DNA from: an uncultured Gammaproteobacteria bacterium
GTDB lineage: Bacteria > Patescibacteriota > Microgenomatia > UBA1406 > GWC2-37-13
DNA: 64,000 nt
NCBI GenBank assembly: GCA_964582715.1
Contig: CAZOSM010000004.1
Coordinates: 57,906 to 121,905 of the forward strand
Direction: 5' to 3'
Below the pieces are notes generated by a model. That model was not told where the DNA came from. It saw only the letters and a program-made list of their open reading frames with translations, and searched no databases. Position 1 is the stretch's first letter. Each line of letters opens with the position of its first letter. Below are positions 3,778 to 14,417 of the stretch, in pieces. The position numbers and the translations under genes were made by a program.

Positions 3778-5070
3778 ATGCGAATTGGAATCATTGGAGC
3801 TGGTTTTACAGGTCTATCAGCGGCACTAGAACTACAGAAAGATGGTCATGAAGTGCACTTATTTGAAAAAGAAAAGGTCCCAGGAGGGCTCGCCGTAGGA
3901 TTTAGTGAAGAACAATGGGATTGGTCACTCGAGAAACATTACCACCATATCTTTACGACAGATTCTGCCATACGTCATTTAGCAAAAGAAGTAAAACATC
4001 CTTTTGAATTTAGTAGACCCAATACGTCCTCGCTTATTGACGCTGATATCATTCAGCTCGACTCACCAATTAAATTACTTCAGTTCCCCAAACTTTCTCT
4101 TATTGAGCGGCTACGAATGGCAGCAGTTCTTGGCTATTTACGATATCTGGCAGATTGGAAGCAACTCGAAAATTTCAAAGCTCACGACTGGCTTACCAAA
4201 GCAATGGGGAAGAAAGGCTATTCAATGCTCTGGGAACCTCTTCTGAAAGCAAAGTTTGGATCATATTACAAAGATATTTCACTTGCATGGTTTTGGGCTC
4301 GTATTAAGGCAAGATCTACTCAGTTGGGTTACCCAAAGCAGGGTTTCCAGGGATTTGCCGAGCGTCTTGTTGATATTATTCTTGATAATGCAGGTGTTAT
4401 TCATTACCAAACACAGGTTACAAAGCTCGATCAAGTAGATAAAAAAACAGTACTAACCTACCAGACAAAGGGTGTAAAACAACAGGAAATCTTTGACGTT
4501 GTGCTTGTAACTATTCCAAATCTTCAGTTTGCTGGTATAGCGCCAAGTCTCCCAGAAAACTATAAAAAGAAATTACGGGATTTTAAAGGTATTGGTGCGG
4601 TAAATATGGTGCTAGAACTTACCAAGCCGTTTTTGCCAAACAAGGTGTATTGGCTCAGTATCTGTGATACTCAGAATCCTTTTTTGGCGGTTGTTGAGCA
4701 CACCAATTTTATTGATAAAAAATACTACGATAATAAGCATATTGTGTATGTGGGGAACTATTTACCTCATGGTCATACGTATTTCTCTATGAAAAAAGAG
4801 GAGCTGCTTAAAGAATACGATCCTTACCTACAGAAATTACATGCAGGTTATGAAAAACACATTGTGAATAGCTATGTCTTTAAAGAACCATTCGCTCAAC
4901 CGGTTGTGACACCAGGCTTTTCAAAACAAATTCTCGATTTTGAAACTCCTTTATCCCATGTTTTTTTGGCTAATATGCAACAAGTGTACCCTTGGGATCG
5001 CGGAACAAACTTTGCAGTTGCAAAAGGAAAGGAAGTCGCGAGTGTGATTCGTGGTAAAATAAAGGCATGA
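3778..5070 (+). CDS. NAD(P)/FAD-dependent oxidoreductase (amine-oxidase / phytoene-desaturase-like fold)
   Basis: IGIIGAGFTGLSAA...LFEKE..PGGLA dinucleotide motif; TGaTATCAT box 5 nt before ATG 3778 (alternative ATG 3763); stop overlaps next start (ATGA at 5067..5070). Confidence 0.75.
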   Translation: MRIGIIGAGFTGLSAALELQKDGHEVHLFEKEKVPGGLAVGFSEEQWDWSLEKHYHHIFTTDSAIRHLAKEVKHPFEFSRPNTSSLIDADIIQLDSPIKLLQFPKLSLIERLRMAAVLGYLRYLADWKQLENFKAHDWLTKAMGKKGYSMLWEPLLKAKFGSYYKDISLAWFWARIKARSTQLGYPKQGFQGFAERLVDIILDNAGVIHYQTQVTKLDQVDKKTVLTYQTKGVKQQEIFDVVLVTIPNLQFAGIAPSLPENYKKKLRDFKGIGAVNMVLELTKPFLPNKVYWLSICDTQNPFLAVVEHTNFIDKKYYDNKHIVYVGNYLPHGHTYFSMKKEELLKEYDPYLQKLHAGYEKHIVNSYVFKEPFAQPVVTPGFSKQILDFETPLSHVFLANMQQVYPWDRGTNFAVAKGKEVASVIRGKIKA

Positions 5071-6638
5071 AATCTTCCTCACAGACCAGTTCAACAGGAG
5101 AATTGCTTTTATCAATTAGTCTTATTGTGCTGGCCTTTGGAGGTATCTTCGATGCATTTTATTTAACACTTAAACATTATTCAAAAGAGATTCCACCTTG
5201 TGCAACAGGTATTTTTGCAGATTGTGGAACTGTCTTAACAAGCCAGTATGCAACAATCTTCAACATTCCTCTATCTCTTTTGGGGATGGTTCATTATGCA
5301 TTACTTACAACTCTTATCTTGATATCGATTATGTCTGCTAAGCAGTTGTTTATTCGACTTGCTTTTCTTGCTTCTGCCATTGGGTTTGTATTCTCTTTAT
5401 ATCTGGTATTCCTTCAGGTAGTTGTACTCAAGGCTTTGTGCCAGTATTGTATGGTTTCAGCGCTTATTAGCTTTATGTTGTATGTTCTTATTCGCATCAG
5501 ATTCTCTGCAGAGTATCGTAATATGATGCCTAAAAAGGTAGAAATGTTGTACCAGATTTTTGGTAAGCCAGCTTTCTTTTTGTTTAACCCTGAATGGGTA
5601 CACGATAACGCAATGCGTTTTGGAGAATTATTTGGAAAAGTGCCTTTTATCAGATCACTATTCCGTTTCCTTTTCTCATATGAACATCCATCACTCAAGC
5701 AGAAAATAGGTGATATTACCTTTCAGAACCCTGTTGGTTTAGCCGCGGGGTACGATTACGAAGCTGCTTTTACTCAGGTATTGCCATCAATCGGTTTTGG
5801 TTTTGAGACGATCGGAACTATGACAAACAGCCCTAGCGAGGGGAATGAAAAACCACGTTTAGGCCGTCTGATTAAATCTAAATCATTGTTGGTAAATAAA
5901 GGATTTAGAAACCCAGGTGCTCAAAGAGTCGTTAAAAAATTACAAGGACACTCCTTTGAATTCCCTTTAGGAATTAGTGTTGGAGTAACCAATGACCCAA
6001 AAATTGCTACACTCAAAGAAGCTATTAATGATATTATCAGTGCTTTCCAAACCTTTGAAAAAGGAAGACTAAAAAATGCCTATTATGAACTCAACATAAG
6101 TTGTCCGAATTTAAAAACAGCAGTTTCTTTCTATGATCCCAAAGGATTACACCAGCTATTAACTGAGGTGGGAAAGCTAAAACTCAAGAAACCTCTATTC
6201 ATTAAAATGCCAATAGAGAAGTCCAATGAAGACGTAAAAAAGATGCTAGATATTATTGTGAAACATAAGGTTGTAAAAGGAGTTATATTTGGTAATCTGC
6301 AAAAAAATAGGAAGGATAAAACACTCCTTCCAGAAGAGGTGTCAAAAATGGGCAAAGGAAACTTTAGTGGTAAACCTACTTTTAAAAGGTCAAACGAGCT
6401 TATCAGATTGGCTTATAAAGGATATGGAAAGAAGCTTGTTATTATTGGCTGTGGTGGTATCTTTAGTGCCGATGATGCTTATATAAAAATAAAGTTAGGA
6501 GCTTCTCTCGTTCAGCTTATTACGGGTATGATCTTTGTTGGCCCTCAACTCATTACTCAGATTAATAGAGGATTAGTGGAGCGGTTAAAACGTGATGGTT
6601 ATAAAAAACTATCCGATGCAGTTGGAGTTGATGCGTAG
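5067..6638 (+). CDS. VKOR-domain / dihydroorotate-dehydrogenase-like fusion protein
   Basis: N-terminal 4 TM helices with C45-x7-C53 and C125QYC128 (VKOR redox pairs). C-terminal DHODH fold (FNPEWVHDNAMRFG, FQNPVGLAAGYD, GNEKPRLGRL, ELNISCPN, FSGKPT, GCGGI, ASLVQLITGMIFVGPQLI). Confidence 0.8.
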   Translation: MKSSSQTSSTGELLLSISLIVLAFGGIFDAFYLTLKHYSKEIPPCATGIFADCGTVLTSQYATIFNIPLSLLGMVHYALLTTLILISIMSAKQLFIRLAFLASAIGFVFSLYLVFLQVVVLKALCQYCMVSALISFMLYVLIRIRFSAEYRNMMPKKVEMLYQIFGKPAFFLFNPEWVHDNAMRFGELFGKVPFIRSLFRFLFSYEHPSLKQKIGDITFQNPVGLAAGYDYEAAFTQVLPSIGFGFETIGTMTNSPSEGNEKPRLGRLIKSKSLLVNKGFRNPGAQRVVKKLQGHSFEFPLGISVGVTNDPKIATLKEAINDIISAFQTFEKGRLKNAYYELNISCPNLKTAVSFYDPKGLHQLLTEVGKLKLKKPLFIKMPIEKSNEDVKKMLDIIVKHKVVKGVIFGNLQKNRKDKTLLPEEVSKMGKGNFSGKPTFKRSNELIRLAYKGYGKKLVIIGCGGIFSADDAYIKIKLGASLVQLITGMIFVGPQLITQINRGLVERLKRDGYKKLSDAVGVDA

Positions 6639-9834: not shown

Positions 9835-11055
9835 TTAATAACTGATTAATTGTGGATCTACATTTGATAAAGTACTTCGTCGTTGTTGTTTTTCAATTTG
9901 AGCTATGGCAGAGTCGATCCCTTTTATAAATGATCTATTTTGGGATTTTGCAATTATTTTAGCTCCAGCAATCGGACTAAGAATCAGTGATGTATTAAAC
10001 AAAGTACTGCCTCCTGTTGGTGTTTTTGGTTCCTCAAATGTTATTTCTATTTTATCAATTGCAATTTTTTTACTCATCTTTTGACCGAACCTAGCGAGAT
10101 GTTCTTTTCCTTTCTTCACATCATATTCAGAAACATTACTGGTTGGGTTTGTCATAATAAAATTAATTCTTTCCTCAGGTCGTAATGATGCAAATCCAGC
10201 TAGAATATCGTGCATGGATAAAAACCCCACTGGTTTTTTATAATTATCAGTGAGCACAACACTATTATGATCAGATGTCATAAGCTGCTTTATTATCTCT
10301 GTCTGCTCCGTATCATTTGATAATGAATATACCCGATGAGTAGCATAGTTTTTTATTGGGTCATCAGATCTATATTTTTTTTCAATATCAAATGCCCGAT
10401 CTGTCTTTTGTATACCATTTTTTCCAAATCGTTGTCTATCCGTAGGCTTCATATATGCATTCAGCAAATCTTTTCGTGAAACTATACCCGAAAGAATTCC
10501 ATGATTACCAACTAATATAACTCGTGATACACTTTTTTTCTTCATTATTTGGAATATGTCTCCCACAGTAGAATTATTACTAGCAGTGACTGGTATATGT
10601 GGTTTTATAGTAGAGCTTATATACATTAATAAATCTTGATCTTTCAGTAAATTTTGAAATATATATTTACTACTTATCACTCCTATAACTTGTTTATCTT
10701 CATTAAATACTGGAAGGACATACATGCGATTTTCAAGCATATATGAGGCTACATTATACAGTTGAGTTTTTTTTGTAATAAGTGGGGGATTTATTGCAAT
10801 TGATGAAACTTTTGTTGTATAGGGATATCTATGTTTGTAAAGTGCTGTGTATGATGAAATAAGTCCGATAAATTCACCTTTTTCTGTAAAAACAAATAAA
10901 GGTGAATGACTTGAAACAATACGCGGTAATACGGATCCCAAAGTTTCTTCTGCATCGATTTTTAGATTATTATCAAGTGGTGAAATATATGGAACAATTT
11001 GAAATTGTTTTTTTAAATCTCTATCAGAGCCTTTTATATGTATTATGTTATTCAT
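9835..11055 (-). CDS. Four-CBS-motif protein with C-terminal HPF/RaiA (ribosomal S30AE)-like domain
   Basis: Four CBS motifs (res ~40-290). Res ~297-393 match the beta-alpha-beta-beta-beta-alpha pattern of hibernation factors (INFIMTN..., IDKIEITFEE, LFNTSLILS, KIIAKSQN, FIKGIDSAIAQIEKQQRR). Confidence 0.65.
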   Translation of the reverse strand: MNNIIHIKGSDRDLKKQFQIVPYISPLDNNLKIDAEETLGSVLPRIVSSHSPLFVFTEKGEFIGLISSYTALYKHRYPYTTKVSSIAINPPLITKKTQLYNVASYMLENRMYVLPVFNEDKQVIGVISSKYIFQNLLKDQDLLMYISSTIKPHIPVTASNNSTVGDIFQIMKKKSVSRVILVGNHGILSGIVSRKDLLNAYMKPTDRQRFGKNGIQKTDRAFDIEKKYRSDDPIKNYATHRVYSLSNDTEQTEIIKQLMTSDHNSVVLTDNYKKPVGFLSMHDILAGFASLRPEERINFIMTNPTSNVSEYDVKKGKEHLARFGQKMSKKIAIDKIEITFEEPKTPTGGSTLFNTSLILSPIAGAKIIAKSQNRSFIKGIDSAIAQIEKQQRRSTLSNVDPQLISY

Positions 11056-11066
11056 AAGTTTGTTAT

Positions 11067-11369
11067 TTAATGCGTTCTATAATATTCTTCTGCATCGTCC
11101 ATGTTTTTAGCAATATTTAGTTCTTTGGGATGTTCCAAATCCGCATCTATTGCTATACCCATCCTGTGTACGTTTTGAAGCGTATCATCGTCGGACTCTA
11201 AATCTGGTGTAGAGCCACTGACAGAGTTACTTCCTCTCACGCTTGGAGATTGAAGAGATGAATTATCTTCTTGAGCCATTTCTTCCATATCTTGTTTGTA
11301 AGTACCGTTATCAACTGGTTTATCGTAAGAAATTACTGTAGGTTTGTTTGTTTTATTTTTTGTTTTCAT
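11067..11369 (-). CDS. Hypothetical acidic Ser/Asp-rich 100-aa protein
   Basis: ORF 11 nt upstream of the CBS gene on the same strand; no recognisable domain. Confidence 0.5.
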   Translation of the reverse strand: MKTKNKTNKPTVISYDKPVDNGTYKQDMEEMAQEDNSSLQSPSVRGSNSVSGSTPDLESDDDTLQNVHRMGIAIDADLEHPKELNIAKNMDDAEEYYRTH

Positions 11370-11539: not shown

Positions 11540-12616
11540 TTATTTTTTAATCGGCAAAGTAAAGTAAAAAGTTGAGCCCTTACCTTCTATACTTTTTACC
11601 CATAATTCTCCACCATGTTGTTTAACAATCTCTGATGAAATAAAAAGTCCGAGTCCAAGCCCAGAAATGGAACTTTCTTTTTTACCTTTCGCTCTAAAAA
11701 ATCTTTCATAAATCCTGCTCTGTTCCTCTTGAGGAATACCCATACCAAAATCTTGTACAGAAACAGTAACTCTACCGATTTCTGGCTTTTGTGAAACTAA
11801 AACTCTCTTTGCTTCAGGTGAGTATTTAATTGCATTCGAAACTAAATTTACGAGTACCTGATGAATTCGTGCTTTATCTGCATAAACTTTTACTTTAGTA
11901 CTATCTGTTCGTTCTACAATATGGGAACTAATTGTGTATTGAAAATTACCTACAACTTCAGCAATCAGTTCCTCTAATTGAAATCGAGTTTTTTTTAATC
12001 GAAGTTGCCCAGTGCGCATTTTATATACATTCATAAATGATGCAACGAGTTCAGTTAATCTATTCATCTGTGAGTCCATTTTAGCAAGCATTGAGGACGC
12101 TTTTTTATCACTCGTGATTAATGGATGTTTTTGCAATAATTGTGTATATGCTTTCATACTCGTGACTGGAGTTTTTAGTTCATGTGATGCAATTGAGATA
12201 AAGTCATCTTTCTGTTGTTCTATATGTTTTTTTTCAGTTATATCTTCCAGAGCCAAAAGTATCATTGGCTCATTGCTGTTTTTCTGAACTACCTTACGTG
12301 CGTTGAGTAGAATAATTCTTTTTCCAATAACCGGAAAATCATGCTCTATTTCAAAATCTTGGAAAAAAGACTTGTTAGGTATGATATCGTTTAGTAAATA
12401 ACGGAGTTTTGGATTGTCCCATTGTCCATTTCCCAACTTATAAATTAACTTTTTTTCTGTTTCTTTTTTAGTAACATGGAAAATTTTATAGAAAGACCTA
12501 TTGGCAGTTAACACTCGGAGTTTTTCATCAAGAATAACGAGCGGTTCTCGTACGGTTTCTACGATCGCTTCTGCATAATCTCGCTCCTGTTCTGTTTTAT
12601 GTAACGATTTTGGCAT
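11540..12616 (-). CDS. Cytoplasmic PAS-domain sensor histidine kinase
   Basis: PAS (ILDEKLRVLTANRSF...), H-box FISIASHELKTPVTS, N/G boxes (NAIKYSP, DFGMGIP, GLGLGLFIS), KGSTFYFTLP tail. Confidence 0.9.
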   Translation of the reverse strand: MPKSLHKTEQERDYAEAIVETVREPLVILDEKLRVLTANRSFYKIFHVTKKETEKKLIYKLGNGQWDNPKLRYLLNDIIPNKSFFQDFEIEHDFPVIGKRIILLNARKVVQKNSNEPMILLALEDITEKKHIEQQKDDFISIASHELKTPVTSMKAYTQLLQKHPLITSDKKASSMLAKMDSQMNRLTELVASFMNVYKMRTGQLRLKKTRFQLEELIAEVVGNFQYTISSHIVERTDSTKVKVYADKARIHQVLVNLVSNAIKYSPEAKRVLVSQKPEIGRVTVSVQDFGMGIPQEEQSRIYERFFRAKGKKESSISGLGLGLFISSEIVKQHGGELWVKSIEGKGSTFYFTLPIKK

Positions 12617-12914: not shown

Positions 12915-13460
12915 TTAGGCCTCTTTTCTAATCTCCTCCATACTTTTTCCACTGACAGCAGAAAAATCGTAGTCATTGGCATCATAGCCTTCTTTTATAT
13001 GTTCATCTTTATGTTTAATAAGAAGCCAGGCATTTGGCCCGCCAAATCCTTTCGTTTTAATAAGAGCAAATGAGCCTTGAATCTTTTTACCGAATAAAGT
13101 GAATTTCAGCTCTCCTTTTTTAAGCCCTTCTTTCACGACTTTTTGTCCTTCATCATAGTCTTTAATAATTTCACGAACACCTTTTGAAACTTCAATCTCT
13201 GGCAGGTAATAACCTTCATCCCAGATCATCACTGGTCCGGCACCATACTTTCCTTCATTAATAACACCTTCAAAATTACGGTATTCCATACTGTGATCTG
13301 TTGTTTGCATAGCAAGTCTTTTCAGGGAGTTATCTAAGGTTGGACCTTTCGGTATTGCCCAAGATGGCATAACTTTTCCAATTTGCAGTCGAAAATCATA
13401 ATGAAGTCTGGTTGCGGCGTGTTTATGTATAACAAAAAGTAATTTTGAAGTTTTTTGCAT
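12915..13460 (-). CDS. Stand-alone LigD-type 3-prime-phosphoesterase (PE) domain protein
   Basis: FVIHKHAATRLHYDFRL, SWAIPKGP, TTDHSMEY..FEG, YGAGPVMIWDEG; TATAAT box 6 nt before ATG 13460. The longer ORF to 13553 is probably non-coding. Confidence 0.8.
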   Translation of the reverse strand: MQKTSKLLFVIHKHAATRLHYDFRLQIGKVMPSWAIPKGPTLDNSLKRLAMQTTDHSMEYRNFEGVINEGKYGAGPVMIWDEGYYLPEIEVSKGVREIIKDYDEGQKVVKEGLKKGELKFTLFGKKIQGSFALIKTKGFGGPNAWLLIKHKDEHIKEGYDANDYDFSAVSGKSMEEIRKEA

Positions 13461-13611
13461 ATGAGAATTATACAAACATAACGTAGGAAAGTAATTATTT
13501 ACAAAAAGAAGGACAATTTCCCCGGACCGACACCTTGTAATATACCAGCACACCGCATTGTGTGGCGTATATGTAGTGAGTATCGATCCAGGGATGAGCT
13601 GTCATCTTCGA

Positions 13612-13820: not shown

Positions 13821-14417
13821 TTAGGTATTATCAAGTGAGTTCCACAAGATACGACAAGCATAGGTCCGGTAAGGTTTCCAGTTTTCGCTTATCTCAAGCA
13901 GTTTCTCAACTGTCGGATCCTTAATCTGGTAGAGTTTTTCAATAGCTCGTTTAAGTCCAAGGTCTCCTGTTGAGAATAAGTCTTCTCGACCCAATGAGAA
14001 CATAAGAAACATCTCAGCTGTCCAACGGCCTATGCCTTTTACTTTAGTCAGCTCATCAATCACTTCCTGTTCTGTCATATCTTTTAATGATTCAAGGTGT
14101 ACTTGTTTGGTAATCACCTTATCTGCTAAATCTAAGATATATTTAGCTTTCGCATTAGAGATACCAAGTGCACGAAGTTCTTCCACAGAAAGTGTATGCA
14201 CACGCTCTGGTTCAATGACATCATCTAGTAGTCGTTTAAACCGGTTATAGATTACATCACTTACTTTTACAGAAAGCTGTTGTGAAATGATTAATTCACA
14301 AAGTGAAGCAAAATAGTTGTCAGACTCAGTTTTCACTATTGTTTTCCCATGCTGCATGGCGGCTTTATACAGTATTAGGTCTTTCTTCTTGAAGTGGTTG
14401 AGAATTTGTTTGTTCAT
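13821..14417 (-). CDS. DNA-3-methyladenine glycosylase II-like (AlkA, HhH-GPD superfamily)
   Basis: HhH-GPD core: QQLSVKV, LTKVKGIGRWTAEMFLMF, catalytic-Asp context TGDLGLKRA. Confidence 0.8.
   Translation of the reverse strand: MNKQILNHFKKKDLILYKAAMQHGKTIVKTESDNYFASLCELIISQQLSVKVSDVIYNRFKRLLDDVIEPERVHTLSVEELRALGISNAKAKYILDLADKVITKQVHLESLKDMTEQEVIDELTKVKGIGRWTAEMFLMFSLGREDLFSTGDLGLKRAIEKLYQIKDPTVEKLLEISENWKPYRTYACRILWNSLDNT

Follow-up and report, generated by a model that had tools for sequence, protein, structure and literature searches.

HibA, an archaeal protein in which a CBS module is fused to an HPF/RaiA-like domain, has been studied by cryo-electron microscopy and is an experimentally proven ribosome hibernation factor (Madru et al., Nat Commun 2026, PMC13324472). 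Its C-terminal domain is located in the 30S mRNA/tRNA channel, its CBS module takes three positions on the 50S subunit, and a loop between CBS3 and CBS4 (residues 190-207) imitates the CCA ends of tRNA inside the peptidyl transferase centre (PTC) (PMC13324472). Haloferax has its own member of this family, AHA (Souza et al., bioRxiv 2026, PMC12934967); this protein carries two AMP molecules at the CBS3/CBS4 junction, and its deletion leads to ribosome loss in stationary phase (PMC12934967). Experimental work on archaea in 2025-2026, comprising cryo-electron microscopy and genetics, established the architecture. AMP and ATP bind both HibA and AHA at this junction (PMC13324472, PMC12934967), with Kd values for HibA of 12, 65 and 113 uM for AMP, ADP and ATP, respectively (PMC13324472). 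The family includes HibA of P. abyssi (PAB0961), T. kodakarensis (TK1186) and T. barophilus (PDB 9SR9-9SRF and 9T7H) and AHA of Hfx. volcanii (HVO_2384). Bacterial homologs have also been reported, comprising 146 sequences found "predominantly in Patescibacteriota, class Microgenomatia" and branching inside the HibA subtree (PMC13454478), and in a published tree the bacterial sequences group within the archaeal AHA cluster (PMC12934967). We analyzed a 64-kb stretch of contig CAZOSM010000004.1 (hereafter the window, to which all window-level searches were limited), which is AT-rich (GC approximately 36%) and contains a hibA/AHA-like gene. With good confidence, we assign its product to the HibA/AHA two-module ribosome hibernation factors, as a bacterial representative from a host in the Microgenomates-group Patescibacteria (candidate phyla radiation, CPR). 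The kind of system is already published, the bacterial clade having been noted in two 2026 papers, and is not a new one.

The coordinates of the gene, its domains and its upstream neighbors are listed in Table 1. The gene is real rather than a chance open reading frame (ORF), because 29 homologs retrieved in a homolog search (36-100% identity) keep the entire architecture in common. A Pfam scan matched PF00571 in four CBS stretches (E = 5.6e-26; 91 bits, cut-off 24), and the AlphaFold (AF2) model of the full-length protein, with a predicted local distance difference test (pLDDT) score of 79.7, contained four beta-alpha-beta-beta-alpha units, the CBS tetrad being mostly at 80-95. When the full-length model was compared with known structures using Foldseek, the nearest were SriA on the M. 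acetivorans 70S ribosome (9znf_4, 1.4e-15), AMP-bound SSO3205, Dri and AMPK gamma; the HibA paper (PMC13324472) and the AHA preprint (PMC12934967) reported the same structural neighbors for the HibA/AHA CBS module. The initial annotation of this DNA had placed two CBS pairs at approximately residues 40-290 of the ORF at 9835..11055, followed by an HPF-like C-terminal region at 9877..10167. The former agrees with the CBS positions in the AlphaFold model of a 406-aa minus-strand ORF, and the latter maps exactly to residues 297-393. Moreover, the six segments listed for the C-terminal domain coincide with the predicted strands (E) and helices (H), namely E298-301, H310-328, E333-341, E353-361, E367-373 and H376-393, and the descriptive statements of that annotation were all confirmed as correct. 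An NCBIfam scan returned matches that cover CBS motifs only and lie far below the cut-offs (e.g. 37 versus 260 bits and 45 versus 795); assignments to PrdR, CcpN, the DS11 anti-phage CBS protein, IMPDH, SpxR, HhpR and CbpB were rejected as generic CBS similarity.

Table 1. Positions of the hibA/AHA-like gene, its domains and motifs, and the genes upstream of it in the window
Feature	Position	Strand	Remarks
hibA/AHA-like gene	9835..11055	-	ORF, 406 aa, isoelectric point (pI) 9.57; ATG at 11055, stop codon 9835-9837
CBS tetrad, residues ~28-290	10186..10974	-	PF00571 and AF2 model: CBS1 28-78, CBS2 85-140, CBS3 150-200, CBS4 236-290
CBS3 ribose-phosphate motif G190-I-V-S-R-K-D196	10468..10488	-	G190 46/52, R194 45/52, D196 48/52 in wide alignment
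CBS3-CBS4 loop, basic and conserved, residues ~201-235	10351..10455	-	Positional counterpart of the HibA/AHA PTC loop
CBS4 motif G277-F-L-S-M-H-D283	10207..10227	-	G277 and D283 invariant in 27 close homologs
HPF-like domain, residues 297-393	9877..10167	-	AF2 domain model, Foldseek, PF02482 in homologs
beta2-beta3 loop insertion EPKTPTGGSTL, residues 342-352	10000..10032	-	HibA-type; ~7 residues beyond E. coli and V. cholerae HPF
Upstream 100-aa acidic ORF	11067..11369	-	11-nt gap to hibA ATG; pI 4.59; D+E 20, K+R 11
PAS-HisKA-HATPase kinase	11540..12616	-	Directly precedes the acidic ORF and hibA; not accompanied by a response regulator

We searched the PDB with a full-length family profile (A1) and found that the best match was P. 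abyssi HibA (chain 9sr9_H, E = 1.5e-22), aligned colinearly from position 37 to 402 of the query and from 22 to 380 of the chain. The alignment spans both modules and the CBS3-CBS4 loop, and every other CBS tetrad ranked lower. The data-availability statement of the paper identifies 9SR9 as HibA (PMC13324472). Authentic HibA sequences from P. abyssi (P0130), T. barophilus (P0147) and T. kodakarensis (TK1186; P0192) were also compared, and BLASTP aligned the window protein with P. abyssi HibA over 367 colinear residues at 19% identity (E = 4e-14). A third homolog search, with a profile built from a 52-sequence alignment (A3) that itself includes two HibA sequences, recovered Thermococcales HibA at approximately 1e-76 and returned the Patescibacteria and Thermococcales sets again and nothing further. 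One of the homologs bears the JGI name 'CBS domain-containing protein/ribosome-associated translation inhibitor RaiA'. The PDB also holds a second solved HibA/AHA-type protein, a 406-aa chain named 'CBS domain-containing protein' (9l96_a; also 9l98, 9l9c and 9l9v). This chain has a haloarchaeal-looking composition and an even longer CBS3-CBS4 loop, and it can be aligned to both modules of P. abyssi HibA (E = 2.3e-32).

We modeled the C-terminal domain alone with AF2 (pLDDT 83, predicted template modeling score 0.74) and compared this model with the PDB using Foldseek. The top 20 matches were all HPF/pY/RaiA structures (E from 1.8e-5 to 8e-3, probability 1.00, template modeling (TM) score 0.6-0.77), comprising chloroplast pY and the HPF/RaiA proteins of Borrelia, Lactococcus, Mycobacterium, Acinetobacter, Staphylococcus, Coxiella, Vibrio, Listeria, E. 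coli, Thermus and Bacillus; dsRBD and LptE folds turned up only at E > 8e-3. The structural comparison of residues 297-393 with HPF/YfiA that the initial annotation had proposed thus came out in its favor. The profile searches suggested alongside it gave a divided answer: PF00571 was matched as described above, whereas PF02482 (Ribosomal_S30AE) remained below the cut-off for the window protein itself (15.5 bits versus a gathering threshold of 23.7, E = 0.03) but was matched separately by 11 of 22 homolog C-termini (best E = 2.2e-4), with other families recurring in no more than three members. A HMMER search with the domain profile, covering 1.84 billion representative proteins, detected 102 proteins at E <= 1e-3, including 64 full-length proteins of the same architecture and 29 proteins shorter than 200 aa. 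Twenty of the short proteins were scanned, 12 of which matched PF02482 and three of which (P0071, P0106 and P0122) did so above the Pfam threshold. Using hhalign, the domain profile (A2) was connected to the short stand-alone relatives at 99.6%, and these in turn to E. coli HPF at 88.5% (E = 2.7e-6). A search of PDB sequences with just the C-terminal 110 aa retrieved nothing beyond a chance match to PsbO (E = 1.6). Because the sequence signal of the domain alone is weak, its HPF-like assignment is based on fold, full-length and transitive evidence. The fusion of four CBS motifs to an HPF/RaiA-like domain is nevertheless borne out by the CBS matches in Pfam, the exclusively HPF-type Foldseek top 20, the 11 homologs with PF02482 and the end-to-end profile match to HibA.

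The HPF domain of HibA has been described as containing two "archaeal-specific insertions", the second of which lies between beta2 and beta3 (PMC13324472). In the window protein, the beta2-beta3 insertion has the same length as in the P. abyssi, T. barophilus and haloarchaeal (9l96_a) HibA/AHA proteins. Within this region (EEPKxxxGG), K344 never varies, and conservation reaches 90% or more at E341, E342, P343 and G348. A MAFFT alignment showed this length difference and a second one, consisting of approximately 4 extra residues at beta1-alpha1. Both insertions occur in the window protein, the Kuenenia protein described below, further fusions from bacteria, the two archaeal lineages and the short stand-alone relatives. 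Neither is present in the HPFs of E. coli and V. cholerae or in another PDB HPF chain (u172881), these three sequences only being the canonical reference for the comparison. The two length features correspond to the two archaeal-specific insertions of HibA.

The loop between CBS3 and CBS4 consists of approximately 35 residues with a pI of 9.77 and is unstructured in the model (residues 204-226, pLDDT < 50). Outside the domain cores, no stretch is more conserved than residues 204-226: all of 27 sequences have P204, R209, E225 and R229, and E225 occurs in 49 of 52 sequences, including those of Thermococcales. In alignments, the loop corresponds to HibA residues ~186-214, and it exceeds that of P. 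abyssi by 9 residues. In a check that covered the presence and position of the loop only, the alignment places it at the position of the HibA PTC loop. CBS motifs of the G-h-h-S/T-x-x-D type bind the ribose and phosphate of adenosine. This motif is intact in CBS3 and CBS4, and CBS1 is degenerate and lacks the aspartate; in the wide set, D283 was found in 28 of 52 sequences, with N in a further 8. Since CBS3 and CBS4 keep the ribose-binding aspartate and CBS1 lacks it, nucleotide sites at CBS3/CBS4 would fit the arrangement in HibA and AHA, and by analogy this pair most likely binds AMP, ADP or ATP.

We further examined the distribution of the family in bacteria. The closest relatives of the window protein were found in Roizmanbacteria, Daviesbacteria (from cluster look-ups), Shapirobacteria, WWE3 and Patescibacteria metagenome-assembled genomes (MAGs), and NCBI taxonomy places Roizmanbacteria in the Microgenomates group. 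Since these relatives are Microgenomates-group MAGs and the published clade is one of Microgenomatia, we concluded from sequence relationships that the window protein most probably belongs to the reported bacterial HibA clade. The 64 full-length representative clusters (50% identity) were 23-57% identical to the window protein by BLASTP and scored much higher against it than against Thermococcales HibA; the bacterial HibA family thus looks larger than "a small number". A full-length HibA-like protein (P0025), 46% identical and present on 133 contigs, was found in Candidatus Kuenenia stuttgartiensis, an anammox planctomycete, where it is misleadingly annotated as 'inosine 5-monophosphate dehydrogenase'; the bacterial clade thus extends beyond Patescibacteria. 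Five sampled gene contexts were all bacterial, containing bS16/TrmD/NusB/RNase III, two-component systems, a sortase, TatAC/BacA and CPR-typical domains of unknown function. Stand-alone relatives of approximately 100-110 aa (P0071, P0063, P0106 and P0122) have the same type of HPF domain including the beta2-beta3 insertion, and P0071 (L017, 1440..1772) adjoins a three-domain bacterial EF-P. It follows from such proteins that the "archaeal-specific" insertion, and the archaeal-type HPF domain itself, also occur unfused in bacteria. One related contig, L005 (CAYUGO010000029.1), is labeled 'uncultured Gammaproteobacteria bacterium' and has a 60%-identical Patescibacteria-type hibA together with the acidic ORF, because of which it is probably a mis-binned or mislabeled MAG contig.

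These bacterial proteins may bear on several issues. [quoted passage not shown] The bacterial clade also offers a natural test of the portability of hibernation factors between domains of life: an archaeal-type factor presumably works here on bacterial ribosomes, which are reduced and unusual, in organisms with a host-dependent lifestyle. In addition, entries from Patescibacteria and Kuenenia named "CBS domain-containing protein" or "IMP dehydrogenase" could be re-annotated as HibA-like.

Compared with HibA and AHA, the window protein is of similar length (406 versus 392 aa), aligns colinearly and has the same HPF-domain loop lengths, while the loop residue E225 and Q390 in the last helix are conserved across both groups and the CBS3/CBS4 nucleotide motifs are kept. 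It differs from Thermococcales HibA in lacking their C-terminal tail, which is longer by approximately 15 residues, and it belongs to a bacterial host, so that its target would be a bacterial ribosome. With canonical HPF/RaiA (YfiA, pY; PF02482), it shares the fold and topology of the domain (TM 0.6-0.77), the (K/R)-Q signature in the last helix and presumably the 30S site that is targeted. However, its HPF-like domain is located at the C-terminus behind a CBS tetrad instead of forming a stand-alone protein of ~95-115 aa, lies under the PF02482 gathering threshold, and contains the approximately 7 extra residues at beta2-beta3 and 4 at beta1-alpha1. Unlike long HPF, the protein has no dimerization domain, and Pfam gave no other domain. 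The archaeal factors SriA-D, Dri and ARC are also CBS-tetrad ribosome hibernation factors. In structure, the modeled tetrad most resembles that of SriA on the 70S ribosome, followed by those of Dri and AMPK gamma, and Dri likewise has a long loop between CBS3 and CBS4. In contrast to the window protein, none of SriA-D, Dri, ARC and AMPK gamma has an HPF domain; moreover, Dri contains two tetrads, and AMPK gamma functions inside a kinase heterotrimer and not on ribosomes.

We infer by analogy with the archaeal proteins that the window protein would bind the ribosome, insert its loop into the PTC of a bacterial ribosome, bind nucleotides and possibly be regulated by energy charge. In such a mechanism, the basic C-terminal HPF-like domain would occupy the 30S mRNA/tRNA channel at the decoding centre, the N-terminal CBS disk would fill the A/P-tRNA space on the 50S subunit, and the conserved basic CBS3-CBS4 loop would reach into the PTC. 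The empty 70S ribosome would thereby be held together in an inactive state that is protected from nucleases, with its active sites shielded, during starvation or dormancy. Since the rRNA elements contacted by archaeal HibA and AHA are universally conserved (PMC13324472, PMC12934967), function on a bacterial ribosome would be plausible. A fuller picture, in which Microgenomatia HibA acts on both subunits with its loop in the PTC, has displaced classical HPF/RaiA and is sequestered by the acidic protein encoded upstream, is possible but tentative as a whole: the two-subunit action with the loop in the PTC is reasonably likely, and the displacement of HPF/RaiA and the acidic partner are speculative. 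To our knowledge, no bacterial hibernation factor acts via both subunits with a loop reaching into the peptidyl transferase centre. The initial annotation had suggested looking for a separate hpf/raiA gene; no second HPF-type ORF was found in the window or across 144 kb of sequence from related loci, a scope that lies below the level of a genome. The authors of the HibA study also speculated on a sequestering partner (PMC13324472).

Several observations weigh against the assignment of the gene to the HibA/AHA hibernation factors. The identity between the window protein and HibA is only ~19-20%, and the case for bacterial HibA members, including the window protein, is built from sequences and predicted structures. 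When PDB sequences were searched with the 22-sequence C-terminal profile (A2), nothing was retrieved at E <= 10, not even HibA, and direct hhalign comparisons of this profile with E. coli-type HPF or with the C-terminal domain of Thermococcales HibA were weak (~4%), although the control, the HibA C-terminal domain against E. coli HPF, reached only 0.6%, so that these shallow profiles have little power and the weak scores do not count as evidence against the domain assignment. Functional support from the gene neighborhood is lacking as well, since the neighborhood was conserved neither among seven GTDB loci nor among five further contexts. One of the HPF-domain insertions in HibA contacts the uS19 tail (PMC13324472), a contact that is not to be assumed in bacteria because this tail is archaeal/eukaryotic-specific and has no obvious bacterial counterpart; the protein contacts may thus differ from the archaeal ones, uL16, uS12, uL5 and uL1 being others to consider. 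Finally, the initial annotation had proposed that the fusion joins an adenylate sensor to a ribosome silencer. This idea coincides with the model for archaeal HibA/AHA, including the binding of AMP, and is therefore not new; however, AMP or ATP had no clear effect on the ribosome binding or conformations of HibA (PMC13324472), and the coupling of energy charge to silencing through adenylate binding is a hypothesis even for the archaeal proteins.

We considered three other explanations of the gene. The CBS tetrad and a bacterial HPF might have been joined independently of archaeal HibA, in which case the protein would act in a HibA-like manner without being its ortholog. Stand-alone proteins with this type of HPF domain, of which at least one adjoins a three-domain bacterial EF-P, would provide a bacterial pool for such an event. 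The sampled contexts of the wider family were bacterial in five of five cases. Nevertheless, the HibA alignment is colinear over the full length, including the CBS3-CBS4 loop, and its HPF-domain loops are gap-free; HibA was the best PDB match, ahead of every other CBS tetrad; and in published trees the bacterial sequences branch within the HibA subtree (PMC13454478) and the archaeal AHA cluster (PMC12934967). We thus consider a separate bacterial origin of the fusion highly improbable. The idea that the protein is a generic CBS regulator whose C-terminal alpha/beta domain merely resembles HPF is hardly credible. It would account for the database names of homologs ('predicted transcriptional regulator', 'IMP dehydrogenase', 'CBS anti-phage protein'), for the NCBIfam matches to the PrdR, CcpN, DS11 anti-phage, IMPDH and HhpR models and for the subthreshold PF02482 score of the window protein. 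However, those NCBIfam matches are confined to CBS motifs far below the cut-offs, the protein has no catalytic or DNA-binding domain, the Foldseek top 20 for the domain consisted of hibernation factors only, and the homology to HibA extends over the full length.

A further explanation accepts the homology to HibA and assumes a role other than stress hibernation in episymbionts, such as routine gating of translation during the life cycle or binding to a single subunit. Growth of the patescibacterium S. epibionticum depends on a canonical RaiA and further regulators of translation (PMC11665869), suggesting that translation control in this group may be unusual, and the PTC-type loop, 9 residues longer than that of P. 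abyssi, is very strongly conserved. Yet the structural determinants of two-subunit binding are all kept, and no sign of a different activity was apparent in the sequence, and such a role appears very unlikely. Membership in the HibA/AHA hibernation factors accordingly remains the reading that we prefer.

The initial annotation had also noted a 100-aa acidic protein (pI 4.59) encoded 11 nt upstream, which corresponds to the minus-strand ORF at 11067..11369, and had suggested it as a partner from the same operon. Homologs 61-71% identical occur in three relatives, and the conservation pattern indicates that this ORF is a genuine conserved gene. Its family has so far been found only in close Patescibacteria relatives, with a motif PxDNGT(F/Y)xQD near the N-terminus and a conserved C-terminal half (SDDDxLQxxHxMGIA...ELNIAK); Pfam and NCBIfam scans gave no family match. 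The ORF lies directly upstream of hibA in L001 (5645..5950) and L002 (2584..2889) and 5 kb away in L005 (~10282..10536), but not next to hibA in L003, L004, L006 and L007. Thus, the conserved gene stood up to analysis, whereas its partnership with HibA is weakly supported, adjacency being seen in only 2 of 7 related loci; the acidic ORF is possibly co-transcribed with hibA, and its product is a possible HibA partner.

A promoter scan of the window yielded 9 promoter-like sites versus 17 expected from shuffled sequences, and a terminator scan yielded 3 terminator-like sites versus 1.3 expected. None of the terminator-like sites was located downstream of hibA, and one near the 3' end of the kinase gene lies inside the kinase coding sequence. 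An Rfam scan detected three tRNAs only, and the hibA gene is followed by a convergent tRNA-Pro. In another locus, L010 (4757..6301), a PAS-HisKA kinase with a response regulator is located approximately 1.7 kb from a hibA-like gene, which may be a coincidence. Upstream of the hibA region, the window encodes a stand-alone LigD 3'-phosphoesterase domain protein and an HhH-GPD glycosylase (12915..13553 and 13821..14417, both on the minus strand), and an HhH-GPD gene lies directly upstream of a hibA-like gene in L011 (774..1391). Elsewhere in the window, a 523-aa ORF (5067..6638, plus strand) consists of a VKOR domain (PF07884, residues 19-141) fused to dihydroorotate dehydrogenase (PF01180, residues 210-507); this combination of a membrane quinone-handling domain with dihydroorotate dehydrogenase is an unusual-looking fusion for a reduced genome.

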